NCBI GenBank assembly: GCA_902560725.1
Contig: CACEMR010000002.1
Span: 287-64,286 of the forward strand
Direction: 5' to 3'
Source of the DNA: an uncultured Alphaproteobacteria bacterium
Lineage (GTDB): Bacteria > Pseudomonadota > Alphaproteobacteria > HIMB59 > GCA-002718135
DNA length: 64,000 nt
In this document: positions 61,730 to 64,000 of the stretch, in pieces
Layout of the letters: each line of letters begins with the position of its first letter
Position numbering within the stretch: the stretch's first letter is position 1
Notes under the pieces: generated by a model
Databases searched by the model: none
The model's input: the letters and a program-made list of their open reading frames with translations, nothing else
Told to the model about the DNA's origin: nothing
Position numbers and translations under genes: made by a program

Positions 61730-62164
61730 ACTAGAAACCTATCCGTTTGGAATTCTCTAAGACCCTTTTCTGTTGGATTTGACTCGATTTTCGATGAATT
61801 TGATAGAATGTTAGAGTCCACTGAACGATACAATACAAACTACCCACCTTACAATATTCATAGAGTTGATGAAAATAACTACAAAATTGAAGTAGCTCTT
61901 GCTGGATATAGTAAAGAGGATATTGAGATTGAATTAAAAGAAAGTAACTTAACCGTTCGAAATAAACCAAAAGAAAAAGTGGTTAATGAAAATGGTAATG
62001 GTGTTATTCATAAAGGTATCTCAACTCGACAGTTTGAAAGATCATTCACAATTTCAGAAGACATCAAAGTGAAAGATGCGGAACTGCAAAATGGACTATT
62101 AACAATAGATTTGGAGAGAATCATTCCAGAAGAAAAAAAAGCTAGACTAATATCAATTAAATAG
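61727..62164 (+). CDS. Small heat shock protein (Hsp20/IbpA family)
   Basis: SVGFD, NYPPYNI, IEVALAG, HKGISTRQFERSF, NGLLTIDL, IPEEKK; ATG 61727 follows AGGAG. Confidence 0.95.
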   Translation: MTRNLSVWNSLRPFSVGFDSIFDEFDRMLESTERYNTNYPPYNIHRVDENNYKIEVALAGYSKEDIEIELKESNLTVRNKPKEKVVNENGNGVIHKGISTRQFERSFTISEDIKVKDAELQNGLLTIDLERIIPEEKKARLISIK

Positions 62165-62173
62165 TCGTGGATA

Positions 62174-62191
62174 GGGGCCCAAAGTGGCCCC
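62174..62191 (+). terminator. Putative terminator hairpin after hsp20
   Basis: GGGGCC-CAAAGT-GGCCCC; U-tract is weak. Confidence 0.55.
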
Positions 62192-62239
62192 AAACTTTAC
62201 AAATATTGAAAAATCTAAATTTAATTTTTATAAGTCATT

Positions 62240-62914
62240 ATGAAAATTATTATTTTTCTTTTAGTATTTTATCCCTTAACAATCTTTGCCCATCAACCTA
62301 AATTAATAAATTATTCACCATCTTTCGATAATCCACATGAGGTAGTTTACCCAGAAATTTCAAAAGCATATTATTCTAAGTTAGAAGGAGAGCCGCATTA
62401 TTATAAAATAAATAGTGATAGTGATTTTTTATTTTATACAGGTATCTTAAGTCCAAAAGTAAATGATAATTACAAATGGTTATCCCTTGAAGTTTTAGAT
62501 GAAAATAAAAAAGTCATTTATAAAGCAGAGGGTAAAGACTTTGAGTGGAATGCTTGGTATGAACCTTATGCTAGAGATTGGTATTGGAAAGGCCCTGAAA
62601 TAGGAACTGAAAGAAATGAAGAATTTAAAACAAGTTTTACAATTGATGCTGGCACCTATTATATAAAAGTATTTAACGACGATAACACAGGACATTATTC
62701 ACTCGCAGTTGGTGAAGCAGAATTTTTTGGATCCAATCTATGGGAACAAATATTAACTTGGACGCCTATCATTCTTTATATTGGCCCATTCATGGATATT
62801 ATACATTGGCAAAAATTTGATATTCGCGCCTACATTCCTCATATTGCTCTTTTAGTTTTAATAACAATTATTTATTTCTTAATAAAAAAAATATTTTTTA
62901 GAAGAAGGGTATAG
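62240..62914 (+). CDS. Hypothetical exported protein with C-terminal membrane anchor
   Basis: Signal peptide ending IFA then HQP, aromatic-rich soluble domain, C-terminal TM followed by KK/RRR. Confidence 0.75.
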   Translation: MKIIIFLLVFYPLTIFAHQPKLINYSPSFDNPHEVVYPEISKAYYSKLEGEPHYYKINSDSDFLFYTGILSPKVNDNYKWLSLEVLDENKKVIYKAEGKDFEWNAWYEPYARDWYWKGPEIGTERNEEFKTSFTIDAGTYYIKVFNDDNTGHYSLAVGEAEFFGSNLWEQILTWTPIILYIGPFMDIIHWQKFDIRAYIPHIALLVLITIIYFLIKKIFFRRRV

Positions 62915-62922
62915 GGTTAAAA

Positions 62923-63510
62923 ATGATGCTAAGATATTTCTTATTCATAAGCATACTTTTAATTATTAAACCTCTTTACGCTCATACCTTTACTGGAATG
63001 AATGGTTTTTATGATGGTCTTTCACATCCTGTTTTAGGATTAGATCATTTTTTAGCAATGGTTTGTGTTGGAGTGGTTAGTTCACAAATTGGCGGTAGAG
63101 CCATTTGGACAGTTCCCTCTTTATTTGTCCTATTTATGATTGTAGGGGGAGCAGCAGGCTTATTTATAGAGATACTTGCCATTACACTCTCTGATATGAT
63201 TGAATGGGGCATAATTTTTTCAGTAATTTTTTTAGGTCTATCCGTTGCAATAGAAAAAAAATTACCAACAAATATTATAATGATAGCTGTTGCATTTTTT
63301 GGCTCTTTCCATGGACTAGCTCATGGCATTGAAATGCCTTGGGCTGCAAACCCATTATTATTTGCTTTGGGGTTTTCATCAGGTACAGCAGCTCTCCACC
63401 TTTTTGGTGTAGGCATAGGCTTAGCACTAATTAAAAATAATTTTTTGAATATAATATTGAGAGCACTCGGCCTTGGATGTGCAATATTTGGATTCTATTT
63501 AATAATATAA
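62923..63510 (+). CDS. HupE/UreJ family Ni/Co transporter
   Basis: Signal peptide then AH, GLSHPVLGLDHFLAM, FHGLAHGIE, LHLFG. Confidence 0.92.
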   Translation: MMLRYFLFISILLIIKPLYAHTFTGMNGFYDGLSHPVLGLDHFLAMVCVGVVSSQIGGRAIWTVPSLFVLFMIVGGAAGLFIEILAITLSDMIEWGIIFSVIFLGLSVAIEKKLPTNIIMIAVAFFGSFHGLAHGIEMPWAANPLLFALGFSSGTAALHLFGVGIGLALIKNNFLNIILRALGLGCAIFGFYLII

Positions 63511-63520
63511 ATTTCTTTTA

Positions 63521-63537
63521 ATTAGAATAGTTCTAAA
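63521..63537. promoter_or_regulatory. Irr/ICE-like iron control element 1
   Basis: ATTAGAA-TAG-TTCTAAA versus ICE consensus TTTAGAA-N3-TTCTAAA (1 mismatch). Confidence 0.55.
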
Positions 63538-63626
63538 TTAAGTTTATTCTTAATGTTTTATATAATTTTTTTTTTATATAATTTAAATTTTTTTTATAAT
63601 GTAAATAAAAGTTTACTTCCGTTCCA

Positions 63627-63683
63627 TGGTGGTTAATATGTTTATCATTATACTCACATTTAATCTTAAATTATTAACCACCA
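63627..63683. ncRNA. Candidate small RNA hairpin
   Basis: Perfect 12-bp inverted repeat TGGTGGTTAATA/TATTAACCACCA around a 33-nt loop. Confidence 0.4.
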
Positions 63684-63701
63684 AATCTATAATTTTTTTA
63701 A

Positions 63702-63718
63702 ATTAGAATAACTCTAAA
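63702..63718. promoter_or_regulatory. Irr/ICE-like iron control element 2
   Basis: ATTAGAA-TAA-CTCTAAA (2 mismatches to ICE), upstream of TATAAT at 63745-63750. Confidence 0.45.
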
Positions 63719-63788
63719 TATCCTTATTAATTAGCTTAAATGCTTATAATAAATTTAGAAATTTAATCAGCTCTAAACAAGTATAATA

Positions 63789-63892
63789 AGTTTTTAGATC
63801 CTTAGTAATAGGACGTGGAGATAAGTGTTGAATTATATGGTAAATGCGTATCTTGACTTAAAGGTTTTCATTTATCTCCACATCTAAAAACT
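63789..63892 (+). ncRNA. Candidate cis-regulatory three-way-junction RNA
   Basis: P1 AGTTTTTAGAT/ATCTAAAAACT (11 bp), P2 CTTA-GTAA-TAGG (GNRA loop), P3 GTGGAGATAAGTG/CATTTATCTCCAC (13 bp, one G-U). Confidence 0.55.
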
Positions 63893-63920
63893 AAGAAATT
63901 TTTAAAATTAAGGAATAAAA

Positions 63921-64000
63921 ATGAAAAAAATAATACTAATTGCTTTTTCATTAGTTTTTTCTTTTTCTGTAACAAAAGCTAATGCAGAAGTTTACGGTCC
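63921..64000 (+). CDS. Secreted protein, 5' fragment (runs off window)
   Basis: AAGGA RBS then MKKIILIAFSLVFSFSVTKANA-EVYG, a Sec signal peptide with an A-x-A site. Confidence 0.75.
   Translation, partial: MKKIILIAFSLVFSFSVTKANAEVYG

Follow-up and report, generated by a model that had tools for sequence, protein, structure and literature searches.

A conserved, predicted leader RNA upstream of iron-uptake genes in one SAR11 genus

Results

We analysed a stretch of 64,000 nucleotides (the window) from an uncultured Alphaproteobacteria bacterium (assembly GCA_902560725.1, contig CACEMR010000002.1). At its far end, on the plus strand, begins a gene for a 454-aa secreted protein (63921..64000; the gene continues past the window, with the full ORF at L004:2208-3572). 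The protein belongs with DUF4856, as its first codons had hinted to a sequence-only reading of the locus: it matches Pfam PF16148 (E 1.9e-10; 40.7 bits, the cut-off being 22.3), with residues 141-247 only aligned, and 29 of its 30 atlas matches are DUF4856 clusters (best 0.96). Searches of NCBIfam and of PDB sequences gave no match. The operon comprises the DUF4856 gene, a fatty-acid-hydroxylase family gene, a solute-binding protein and an ABC permease. The binding protein has a single match (E 1e-20 or better), at 39-42% identity, in each of four Pelagibacter-genus genomes.

The DUF4856 gene is preceded by a predicted 5′ leader RNA (63796..63920, plus strand), which in two alignments runs from a conserved block right up to the ATG at 63921. 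We compared 28 distinct sequences of the long form, the one present in the window, and 33 of a short form. The first 27 nt, AGATCCTTAGTAATAGGACGTGGAGAT (63796..63822), are identical in 28/28 long forms, and the exact 27-mer recurs in 12/12 matches of a covariance model that needs no exact match. Among the long forms, identity is 1.00 in the 5′ block and the core of helix P3 (described below), 0.53 in the spacer between the upstream ICE box and the -10 hexamer, and 0.84 in the first 60 coding nucleotides. The difference between leader and spacer, together with the invariance of the 27-mer, argues for purifying selection on the leader RNA.

The two forms differ in what they contain and in what they precede. 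The long form stands before the DUF4856 gene and Fe(III) ABC transporter genes. The short form, seen in 33 other genomes, is made up of the 5′ block and a P3 whose loop has 5 nt, lacks hairpin P4 and the entire inner region, and lies directly before the transporter's binding-protein gene. The inner region therefore cannot be the shared functional core. The range of both is narrow, being confined to one SAR11 genus: the covariance model recovered the full-length long form in 12 of 151 Pelagibacterales genomes (110-138 bits), with 0/71 genomes of the genus Pelagibacter and 0/10 further genomes of the order giving a match. Nor did a wider family emerge when 185,579 species genomes were scanned twice with degenerate or gapped patterns; the scans returned no copy with a different P3, only two variants of the 5′ block (both single-base), and 14 and 5 chance matches in unrelated taxa.

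The sequence-only reading had recognised no TPP, cobalamin, glycine, SAM or yybP pattern here, and a cmscan of 62000-64000 against Rfam 15 agreed, with six matches, all below the gathering threshold (E 0.76-9.8). The only one overlapping the leader was MIR845_2, on the minus strand, at 17.6 bits against a gathering threshold of 80. Three other long forms and one short form together gave one sub-threshold match, which by its coordinates falls inside the sfuC-like gene for the binding protein that follows the short-form leader. In the literature searched, no paper described the element. The view of the locus as an unclassified, conserved plus-strand leader RNA before an iron-related operon with an ICE box is supported, as are the lack of an Rfam 15 match and the hint of a DUF4856 protein downstream.

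The promoter region has a fixed geometry. An ICE-type (Irr-box-like) palindrome, ATTAGAATAACTCTAAA (ICE box 2, 63702..63718, no strand assigned), matches at 15 of 17 positions the consensus TTTRGAAYNRTTCYAAA given in PMC1698941, and has a mean pairwise identity of 0.95 among the 28 long forms; another ICE box farther upstream (63521-63537) matches the same consensus at 16 of 17. ICE box 2 ends 77-78 nt upstream of the conserved RNA block in 61/61 distinct long and short sequences. A -10 hexamer, TATAAT in the window (63782..63787, plus strand), lies exactly 8 nt before the AGAT block in 28/28 long forms (TATAAA 26, TATAAT 1, TATAGA 1); its counterpart is GATAAT in 31/33 short forms, the other 2/33 having poorer hexamers. 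We found no match to a -35 element upstream of this hexamer. The constant distances of hexamer and ICE box suggest that the block begins at the transcript start, which would lie at about 63794-63797. A different TATAAT, at 63745-63750, had earlier been picked out as following an ICE-like box; the box is real, but this TATAAT occurs in the window's genome only and was rejected as the promoter.

We noted a second ICE-driven, conserved, RNA-like block (block 2, 63614-63682) just upstream of the leader's promoter region. The spacing between the second ICE box and block 2 is the same as for the leader in 18/19 sequences, and the 5′ segment of block 2 is C/U-rich and resembles an anti-ribosome-site sequence. 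A search of RNA runs returned 13 runs, in each of which a small share (0.05-0.17) of the words from a 4.5-kb stretch was present.

The minimum-free-energy (MFE) fold of 63780-63925 (plus strand) has -31.6 kcal/mol (z -3.41; 0/200 shuffles as good) and holds, besides a small hairpin (63800-63812), two longer helices, P1 (11 bp) and P3 (13 bp). P3, formed by GUGGAGAUAAGUG (63815..63827) and CAUUUAUCUCCAC (63869..63881) on the plus strand, appears in both the MFE fold and the alignment consensus, and is kept in every relative found. Its 8 core pairs are invariant in 28/28 long forms, and positions 9, 12 and 13 show both-sided changes among them (position 9: A-U 17, G-C 9, G.U 2; position 12: U-A 13, U.G 5, C-G 3, unpaired 7). 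In short forms, 5 of 7 singleton changes in P3 break a pair, which may reflect errors in single-cell assemblies or real tolerance. Between the arms of P3 lie 5 nt in the short form, against about 41 nt in the window's long form, where RNAalifold places an apical hairpin, P4 (63839..63858, plus strand; GGU.AA / UU.ACU), with the conserved loop GCRYAUC. The five pairs of P4 are formed in 97.9% of cells, and all variation is one-sided, to G.U. Beneath P3, the RNAalifold consensus joins CUUAGU (63801..63806) to ACUAAG (63890..63895), both on the plus strand, as helix 1, all 6 columns of which are paired in 28/28 long forms once the most divergent copy, L058, is realigned; its three substitutions are each A to G, yielding U.G.

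This rod-like consensus is 93.4% paired, against 38-44% in slid controls, and leaves AAUAGGAC, GGUAAA and GCRYAUCUUA as conserved unpaired nucleotides. Both-sided changes, however, occur in 3/24 pairs only and their count was often equalled by shuffles (222/500), so that covariation, in leaders that all come from one SAR11 genus, is weak for the fold and modest for P3.

The sequence-only reading had stacked P1 (63789..63799, plus strand, with 63882-63892) on P3 and added a GUAA-capped P2 (63801-63812) to form a three-way junction ending 28 nt upstream of the ATG. The end point is correct, and the pairings are present in the MFE fold of this genome. P1, however, is private to it: 9/9 scorable base pairs form here, whereas the longest equivalent helix in the 27 other long forms has 3-6. 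Most of the 5′ strand of P1, moreover, precedes the start that the -10 hexamer implies. The three-way junction is therefore rejected as a feature of the family; a start from the hexamer at 63782-63787, named in advance as the event that would cut P1 short, is what the sequences indicate, that hexamer being the sole conserved one. P2 is invariant across long forms, and in the short form its GNRA loop is lost and another register is favoured. The alternative local hairpin, UCCU (63799-63802) with AGGA (63810-63813) on the plus strand, overlaps P2 and undergoes a both-sided change, to UUCU/AGAA, in the short form; it is thermodynamically weak and falls outside the MFE fold of transcripts beginning at 63796.

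The minus strand of the region also folds well (z -4.46), and fold energy thus does not decide the strand. The substitutions do point to one: of 24 paired column pairs, 10 include G.U or U.G states and 3 include A.C or C.A, two of these 3 being at the fraying end of P3. Together with the A to G changes opposite U in helix 1 and the direction of the gene itself, this bias argues for a plus-strand RNA, the strand favoured earlier on account of the G-U pairs.

The 5′ strand UCCUUAGU (63799-63806) has two candidate partners. One is the decoy ACUAAG, with which it forms helix 1; the other is the ribosome-binding region AUUAAGGA (63907..63914, plus strand), to which it is complementary. In 10/10 long forms the duplex of the 5′ block with the 3′ flank of P3 has predicted energies of -6.9 to -10.1 kcal/mol, equalled by at most 1% of 1000 shuffles, and that of the 5′ block with the 22 nt preceding the ATG has -7.0 to -11.0 kcal/mol, equalled by at most 1.2%. 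Folds constrained to the anti-ribosome-site pairing lie 0.4-4.4 kcal/mol above the helix 1 fold (11 long forms), and in L058 both pairings are longer. By predicted energies, then, the long forms, and they only, carry mutually exclusive pairings of the kind expected of an expression platform, although these 10 or 11 replicates are not independent, since they share one 5′ block and come from one genus. In the short form the 5′ block pairs with the ribosome-binding site at -2.8 to -4.2 kcal/mol, a value reached by 31-59% of shuffles; lacking any special complementarity there, a switch cannot account for the conservation of the 5′ block and P3 across both forms. The site is mostly open in the model ensemble (mean unpaired probability 0.54-0.90).

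Other kinds of signal were not detected. There are 0 terminator-like sites on either strand of 63480-64000, and A-rich sequence follows P3. Iron-responsive elements have a six-base CAGUGN apical loop and a bulged C five pairs below it; judged by eye, P3 has no bulged C, and the apical loops of the leader are different ones, UGCGUAUC in the window's long form and UUUAU in the short form. A 20-codon frame starting with GTG (63825-63887) was rejected as an upstream ORF, as it lies in an indel-bearing region and, judged by eye, its start is not conserved.

Discussion

The reading we prefer, and hold tentatively, is that the 5′ UTR of this ICE-promoter iron-uptake operon, starting near 63796, is a bistable translational leader. 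The core common to both forms comprises the invariant 5′ block and, after it, the stable hairpin P3. In one state of the long form, UCCUUAGU would sit on the decoy as helix 1, stacked under P3 and P4 in a rod, and the ribosome-binding site would be free; in the other it would cover the site and translation would be blocked. The leader would in this way set the yield of DUF4856 protein per transcript, and perhaps also that of the downstream transporter proteins, and the balance would be shifted by some factor that targets either the P3/P4 domain or the 5′ block. The 5′-terminal hairpins would probably also shield the mRNA.

Shielding could conceivably be the whole function, which we regard as rather unlikely. 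P3 and the structured 5′ end would then protect an abundant mRNA from 5′-end-dependent decay with no switching, and the sequence would be conserved through the youth of the element and promoter-proximal constraints. Such a role fits the stable hairpin less than 20 nt from the presumed 5′ end in both forms, the largely open ribosome-binding site and the use of one module before two different first genes, and it has an analogue in the ompA-type 5′ stem-loops of E. coli, likewise stable hairpins near the 5′ terminus of an abundant mRNA for an envelope protein. Structure alone, however, does not require 27 invariant nucleotides, some of them unpaired, beside a spacer of 0.53 identity, and stabilisation leaves unexplained both the conserved apical loop and the double complementarity of the long-form 5′ strand; invariant unpaired bases and two specific partners of the 5′ strand likewise set the leader apart from the ompA type.

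An improbable reading places the conservation in DNA, with the invariant block at +1 to +27 and the inverted repeat GTGGAGAT/ATCTCCAC as operators for a second regulator, such as the other Fur-family protein (this genome has two Fur-family genes), acting with the ICE box. The block does adjoin the promoter at a fixed spacing, the repeat of the short form, a 9-bp palindrome around a 5-bp spacer, would suit a dimer, the change from UCCU/AGGA to UUCU/AGAA preserves a palindrome in DNA as well, and the minus strand folds equally well. Yet the two forms space the half-sites differently, at 5 and about 41 bp, and these remain complementary, with complementarity that extends, with covariation, past the invariant arms, which argues for an RNA rather than an operator, and the wobble-type changes fit plus-strand RNA only. 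In addition, the dyad symmetry of the block is slight beyond 4 bp, and, judged by eye against the consensus sequences in PMC1698941, it shows little likeness to an ICE or Fur box in the short form and none in the long form.

Quite improbable, too, is a true riboswitch, in which the P3/P4 rod would bind a ligand reporting iron status (Fe2+, heme or another metal) and stabilise or destabilise helix 1, thereby exposing or hiding the ribosome-binding site. It would account for the conserved unpaired nucleotides and suit the iron-uptake context and the lack of a known family, and a closing-helix strand that doubles as the anti-ribosome-site sequence is the usual logic of translational riboswitches. 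The leader shares this arrangement with known platforms, together with exclusive conformers of similar predicted energy, but has no ligand, junction-type aptamer or Rfam family to match theirs; the RNAalifold consensus of the long forms contains no multi-helix junction, and the short form does without the platform altogether. Indeed, the inner region, which like P4 is lacking in the short form although the 5′ block and P3 are retained there, is dispensable for whatever function is shared. The restriction to one genus also speaks against a riboswitch, and the ICE box probably already gives iron control of transcription. NiCo/czcD, yybP-ykoY and the SAR11 candidate motifs (presumably members of Rfam 15) are cis-acting leaders of metal-homeostasis genes as well, and none was among the cmscan matches at E up to 10 in 62000-64000.

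Least likely is a platform for a factor in trans, a cold-shock-domain protein or the block 2 transcript, recognising a largely single-stranded 5′ block in both forms: the block is indeed kept where it is not stably paired (the short form), a cold-shock-domain gene is present and CsrA and Hfq, whose genes were not found in this 90%-complete genome, are rejected as factors, but cold-shock proteins usually have low sequence specificity, block 2 is rejected as partner with duplex energies equal to those of shuffles, and so are genomic antisense partners, the 11- to 13-nt complements being at about the chance level by our own estimate. Such a factor could in any case be the trigger of a bistable leader, and does not exclude one. 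The idea owes something to Smith et al. 2010, whose text on SfuC (PMC2864753) proposes the RNA-binding cold-shock proteins CspE/CspL as enabling its synthesis.

A close parallel is in Ca. Pelagibacter ubique HTCC1062, where a 'putative structural RNA region', likewise non-coding, lies directly upstream of a SAR11 Fe(III) ABC transporter operon, sfuA-C; Smith et al. 2010 took it from the list of intergenic regions in Meyer et al. 2009 (PMC2704228) and, in the passages concerned (PMC2864753), suspected post-transcriptional control, as we do for the present leader. In that list the region is a table row bearing no motif name, with no motif or structure defined there (PMC2704228). Besides being missing from the Pelagibacter genomes searched with the covariance model, our element could not be made out upstream of that gene for the binding protein in the four genomes inspected. 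The promoters differ as well: the sfu operon is predicted to be controlled by Fur and not through an ICE, with one or two ICE sites predicted in P. ubique and none at the iron transporter, according to the parts of PMC1698941 on this species, whereas the present leader has an ICE box. With Bradyrhizobium and other alpha-proteobacterial ICE/Irr promoters the locus shares the 17-bp palindrome (15-16 of 17 here) upstream of iron genes. The description of that system in the same parts of PMC1698941 covers the DNA component only, and a conserved structured leader at +1 is absent from it.

Iron limits bacterial growth across large areas of the ocean, where SAR11 outnumbers every other heterotroph. 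In cultured Pelagibacter, proteome changes under iron limitation were not explained by mRNA levels; SfuC mRNA rose 16-fold and the protein 27-fold, and control of this iron-binding protein through RNA structure was proposed, with no RNA element named in the text concerned (Smith et al. 2010, PMC2864753). In this sister genus the iron transporter is under an ICE-type box, where P. ubique is predicted to use Fur (PMC1698941, in the parts cited). If the leader were only stabilising, it would be an ordinary lineage-specific 5′ UTR. At the other extreme, and as a long shot, the long form would be a genuine sensor, either riboswitch-like or a bistable RNA gated by a chaperone, and would couple the translation of Fe(III)-uptake genes to iron status; with block 2 it would make up an RNA layer of iron regulation in a SAR11 lineage in which Hfq and CsrA were not found. 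The leader offers a defined, conserved and mutable cis element that occurs naturally in two forms, has two alternative pairings and stands at a fixed distance from an ICE promoter, and thus makes the idea of RNA-structure control of iron uptake in SAR11 testable.

Gene context and distribution

The predicted leader (plus strand, 63796-63920) lies in the intergenic space 63511-63920, between a HupE/UreJ gene (62923-63510; PF04955, E 1.5e-46) and the gene for a 454-aa secreted protein, which starts at 63921 and runs beyond the window (L004:2208-3572). The suspicion raised in the sequence-only reading that this is a DUF4856-type protein proved correct: it matches PF16148 at 40.7 bits (cut-off 22.3), and 29 of its 30 atlas matches are DUF4856 clusters (best 0.96). 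No match was found among NCBIfam and PDB sequences. The nearest atlas match besides DUF4856, a cluster of the algal low iron-inducible periplasmic protein (Fea1), at 0.83, is a lead only. Downstream follow genes for a fatty-acid-hydroxylase family protein, a solute-binding protein and an ABC permease. Four genomes from the other large SAR11 genus each contain one match to the solute-binding protein (E 1e-20 or better; 39-42% identity), and we infer that these matches correspond to the sfuC/fbp-type Fe(III)-binding protein described by Smith et al. 2010 (PMC2864753).

A DNA search of 61 related genomes found four full-length homologues of the leader, at 74-80% identity. An exact 21-mer scan with one genome per species gave 18 loci, all in SAR11 single-cell or metagenome genomes, and a gapped pattern scan of metagenome contigs gave 21, of which 11 were true and 10 were G+C-rich chance matches. 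With a covariance model, 151 Pelagibacterales genomes yielded 12 full-length copies (110-138 bits, the window's genome included), all within the window's genus. Together, these searches provided 28 distinct leaders of this long form, which were aligned (alignment A2). A second class of matches also came out of the model search; these are 63-68 nt long, score 27-33 bits and belong to 33 further genomes of the window's genus. In 71 genomes from the other large genus and 10 from other genera in the window's family, the leader was not found; since many of these genomes are incomplete, the absence holds only for the sequence that was searched. Two further pattern scans, run over 185,579 species genomes, gave zero copies with a different P3 (the helix 63815-63827/63869-63881) and just two single-base variants of the conserved 5' block (63796-63822), along with 14 and 5 chance matches in unrelated taxa. 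One 2,993-nt contig binned as an uncultured Dehalococcoidia (CAYOMB010000153.1; L159/L229) carries a true, exact SAR11 short-form leader with its promoter, and is probably mis-binned.

The second class is a short form of the leader, AAGATTCTTAATCATAGAACGTGGAGATATTTATTATCTCCAC followed by an A run, GAAGG and ATG, which immediately precedes the gene for the Fe(III)-binding protein in 33 of the 70 genus genomes sampled (L098:1428-1491; also L086-L103, L109 and others). The order in these genomes is hsp20 gene, its terminator, ICE box, leader, binding-protein gene. Genomes of the window's type have four additional genes between the hsp20 and binding-protein genes (62240-63510 and L004:2208-4631), encoding a 224-aa secreted protein (no Pfam or NCBIfam match), HupE/UreJ, the DUF4856 protein and the fatty-acid-hydroxylase family protein. 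In the short form P3 is kept, with a loop of 5 nt, as are 15 of 19 bases of the 5' block. Thus, the inner region of the long form, of about 41 nt, lies outside the shared core; it is an insertion in, or a deletion from, the P3 loop.

Promoter, conservation and fold

In long forms a -10-like hexamer stands exactly 8 nt upstream of the AGAT block (TATAAA in 26, TATAAT in 1 and TATAGA in 1 of 28); at the same place 31 of 33 short forms have GATAAT. The ICE-like box noticed earlier is confirmed: at 63702-63718 it matches the published consensus TTTRGAAYNRTTCYAAA, as given in PMC1698941, at 15 of 17 positions, and in all 61 distinct sequences an ICE-type box ends 77-78 nt upstream of the block. The TATAAT at 63745-63750 shows no conservation. 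A simple promoter scan detected no -35/-10 pair at the leader, its hits in the region being at chance (4 found, 4.6 expected). This geometry suggests that the transcript starts near 63794-63797. Such a start would cut off most of the proposed helix P1 (63789-63799/63882-63892), an outcome that the sequence-only reading had itself named as speaking against its structure.

Among the 28 long forms, mean pairwise identity is 1.00 in the 5' block (27 nt), 0.95 in the ICE box, 0.84 in the first 60 coding nucleotides, 0.74 both between the P3 cores and from P3 to the ATG, and 0.53 in the spacer from ICE to -10. Several of the 28 came from exact-pattern searches; the exact 27-mer is also present in 12 of 12 covariance-model copies, a search needing no exact match.

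P1 (11 bp), the small hairpin P2 and P3 (13 bp) are, as proposed, all present in the minimum free energy (MFE) structure of 63780-63925 in this genome (-31.6 kcal/mol, z -3.41). The reverse strand also folds (z -4.46), so energy alone cannot pick the strand. The three-way junction does not hold for the family: the RNAalifold consensus is a rod, consisting of helix 1 (63801-63806 with 63890-63895), a variable step of 2-5 bp listed between helix 1 and P3, P3 itself and an apical hairpin P4 (63839-63844 with 63853-63858). P1 is private to this genome, where 9 of 9 scorable pairs form; the remaining 27 long forms have helices of at most 3-6 pairs. Between the two forms, the change from UCCU/AGGA to UUCU/AGAA keeps a weak local hairpin that overlaps P2 (63801-63812) in a different register; the short form has AUCA in place of the GUAA loop.

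On A2, 93.4% of cells are paired, versus 38-44% with slid partners, a control that is biased because the structure was derived from the same sequences. Both-sided changes occur in 3 of 24 pairs, all in P3 (positions 9, 12 and 13). This count was reached in 222 of 500 shuffles, and the cell count and covariation score in 0 of 500; the alignment therefore points to covariation that is present but thin. With the most divergent copy realigned, the six columns of helix 1 pair in 28 of 28 sequences, and each of its three substitutions is A to G opposite U. Overall, wobble states (G.U or U.G) were seen in 10 column pairs, and A.C or C.A in 3, of which two are located where P3 frays at its end. This direction of wobble fits a plus-strand RNA, the strand favoured earlier, but neither an RNA from the minus strand nor a palindrome acting purely as DNA. 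Against this, five of the seven singleton changes in P3 of the short forms break a pair.

Comparison with known systems

The leader belongs to no Rfam family. A search of 62000-64000 against Rfam 15 (E up to 10) gave six matches, all sub-threshold, in agreement with the earlier impression that no known family matches; the only one overlapping the leader was MIR845_2, on the minus strand, at 17.6 bits against a threshold of 80. Three other long forms and one short form gave nothing relevant. We found no description of the leader in the literature. A 'putative structural RNA region' upstream of sfuA-C is mentioned by Smith et al. 2010 (PMC2864753), and the relevant list in Meyer et al. 2009 (PMC2704228) carries the HTCC1062 sfuC-upstream region without a motif. 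The leader is distinct from that region by any test that could be run: the model finds nothing in the 71 genomes of HTCC1062's genus, and no leader-like hairpin is visible upstream of the binding-protein gene in four of its genomes. For P. ubique, Rodionov et al. 2006 (PMC1698941) predict a transporter controlled by Fur rather than through ICE, and only one or two ICE sites in the genome.

A second ICE-type box and conserved block

Another ICE-type box, at 63521-63537, agrees with the consensus at 16 of 17 positions. A second conserved plus-strand block (block 2, 63614-63682) begins 77-78 nt after this box in 18 of 19 distinct sequences, repeating the geometry found at the leader. The 5' segment of block 2, TACTTCCGTTCCATGG, is invariant and C/U-rich; after it comes a hairpin (63628-63637 with 63673-63682) in which one position shows A-U, G-C and G.U states. 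Block 2 has no Rfam match. It was found in 19 of 105 genus genomes; each listed copy shares its contig with a long leader or, where no long leader mapped, sits on its own contig. Where the positions of both are available, it adjoins the leader, and it is missing from one subgroup of long forms. Block 2 could represent a small RNA driven from the ICE box, or an upstream isoform of the leader.

A few more ICE-like palindromes are present elsewhere in the window's genome (contig:position C5:33676, C6:35316, C8:57480 and C10:41769). These could outline the Irr-type regulon of the lineage.

Alternative pairing and possible mechanism

We folded transcripts from 63796 to 15-18 nt beyond the start codon. 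The MFE structure uses helix 1 in the nine long forms folded (its register shifted by one in L069), and the ribosome-binding site stays largely unpaired (mean unpaired probability 0.54-0.90). The same 5' strand, UCCUUAGU, has a complement, AUUAAGGA, at the ribosome-binding site, and forcing this pairing costs just 0.4-4.4 kcal/mol in 11 long forms. Paired with the 22 nt before the ATG, the 5' block reaches -7.0 to -11.0 kcal/mol in 10 of 10 long forms (shuffled mean -2.0 to -3.7; at most 1.2% of 1000 shuffles as good), and paired with the 18 nt after P3 it reaches -6.9 to -10.1 kcal/mol in 10 of 10 (at most 1% as good), figures that come close to a single observation in varied contexts, since the long forms share one 5' block and one ancestry. 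In three short forms the duplex with the 22 nt before the ATG reaches -2.8 to -4.2 kcal/mol, and 31-59% of shuffles are as good. Both long-form pairings are strengthened by exactly those bases (U to C, A to G) at which the two 5' blocks differ.

The long form can be read as a bistable translational leader, in which the decoy (63890-63895) and the ribosome-binding site would compete for the 5' strand. The switch might be triggered by a ligand, which would make it a riboswitch, or by an RNA chaperone; alternatively, simple kinetic folding might suffice without a trigger. CspE/CspL are proposed by Smith et al. 2010 (PMC2864753) to enable SfuC synthesis under iron limitation. A cold-shock-domain gene is present in the window's genome, and neither CsrA nor Hfq was found in it (90% completeness). 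The rival view that the conserved sites are a DNA operator is weakened by the spacing of the P3 arms, 5 nt in the short form and about 41 nt in the long form, and by a wobble pattern compatible with plus-strand RNA only.

The proposed mechanism is plausible but unproven. The leader itself is real and conserved, a plus-strand element belonging to an iron-uptake operon, genus-restricted and unclassified, whose shared core (the 5' block and P3, at the extreme 5' end behind an ICE promoter) would act as a cis element of the iron-uptake mRNA.
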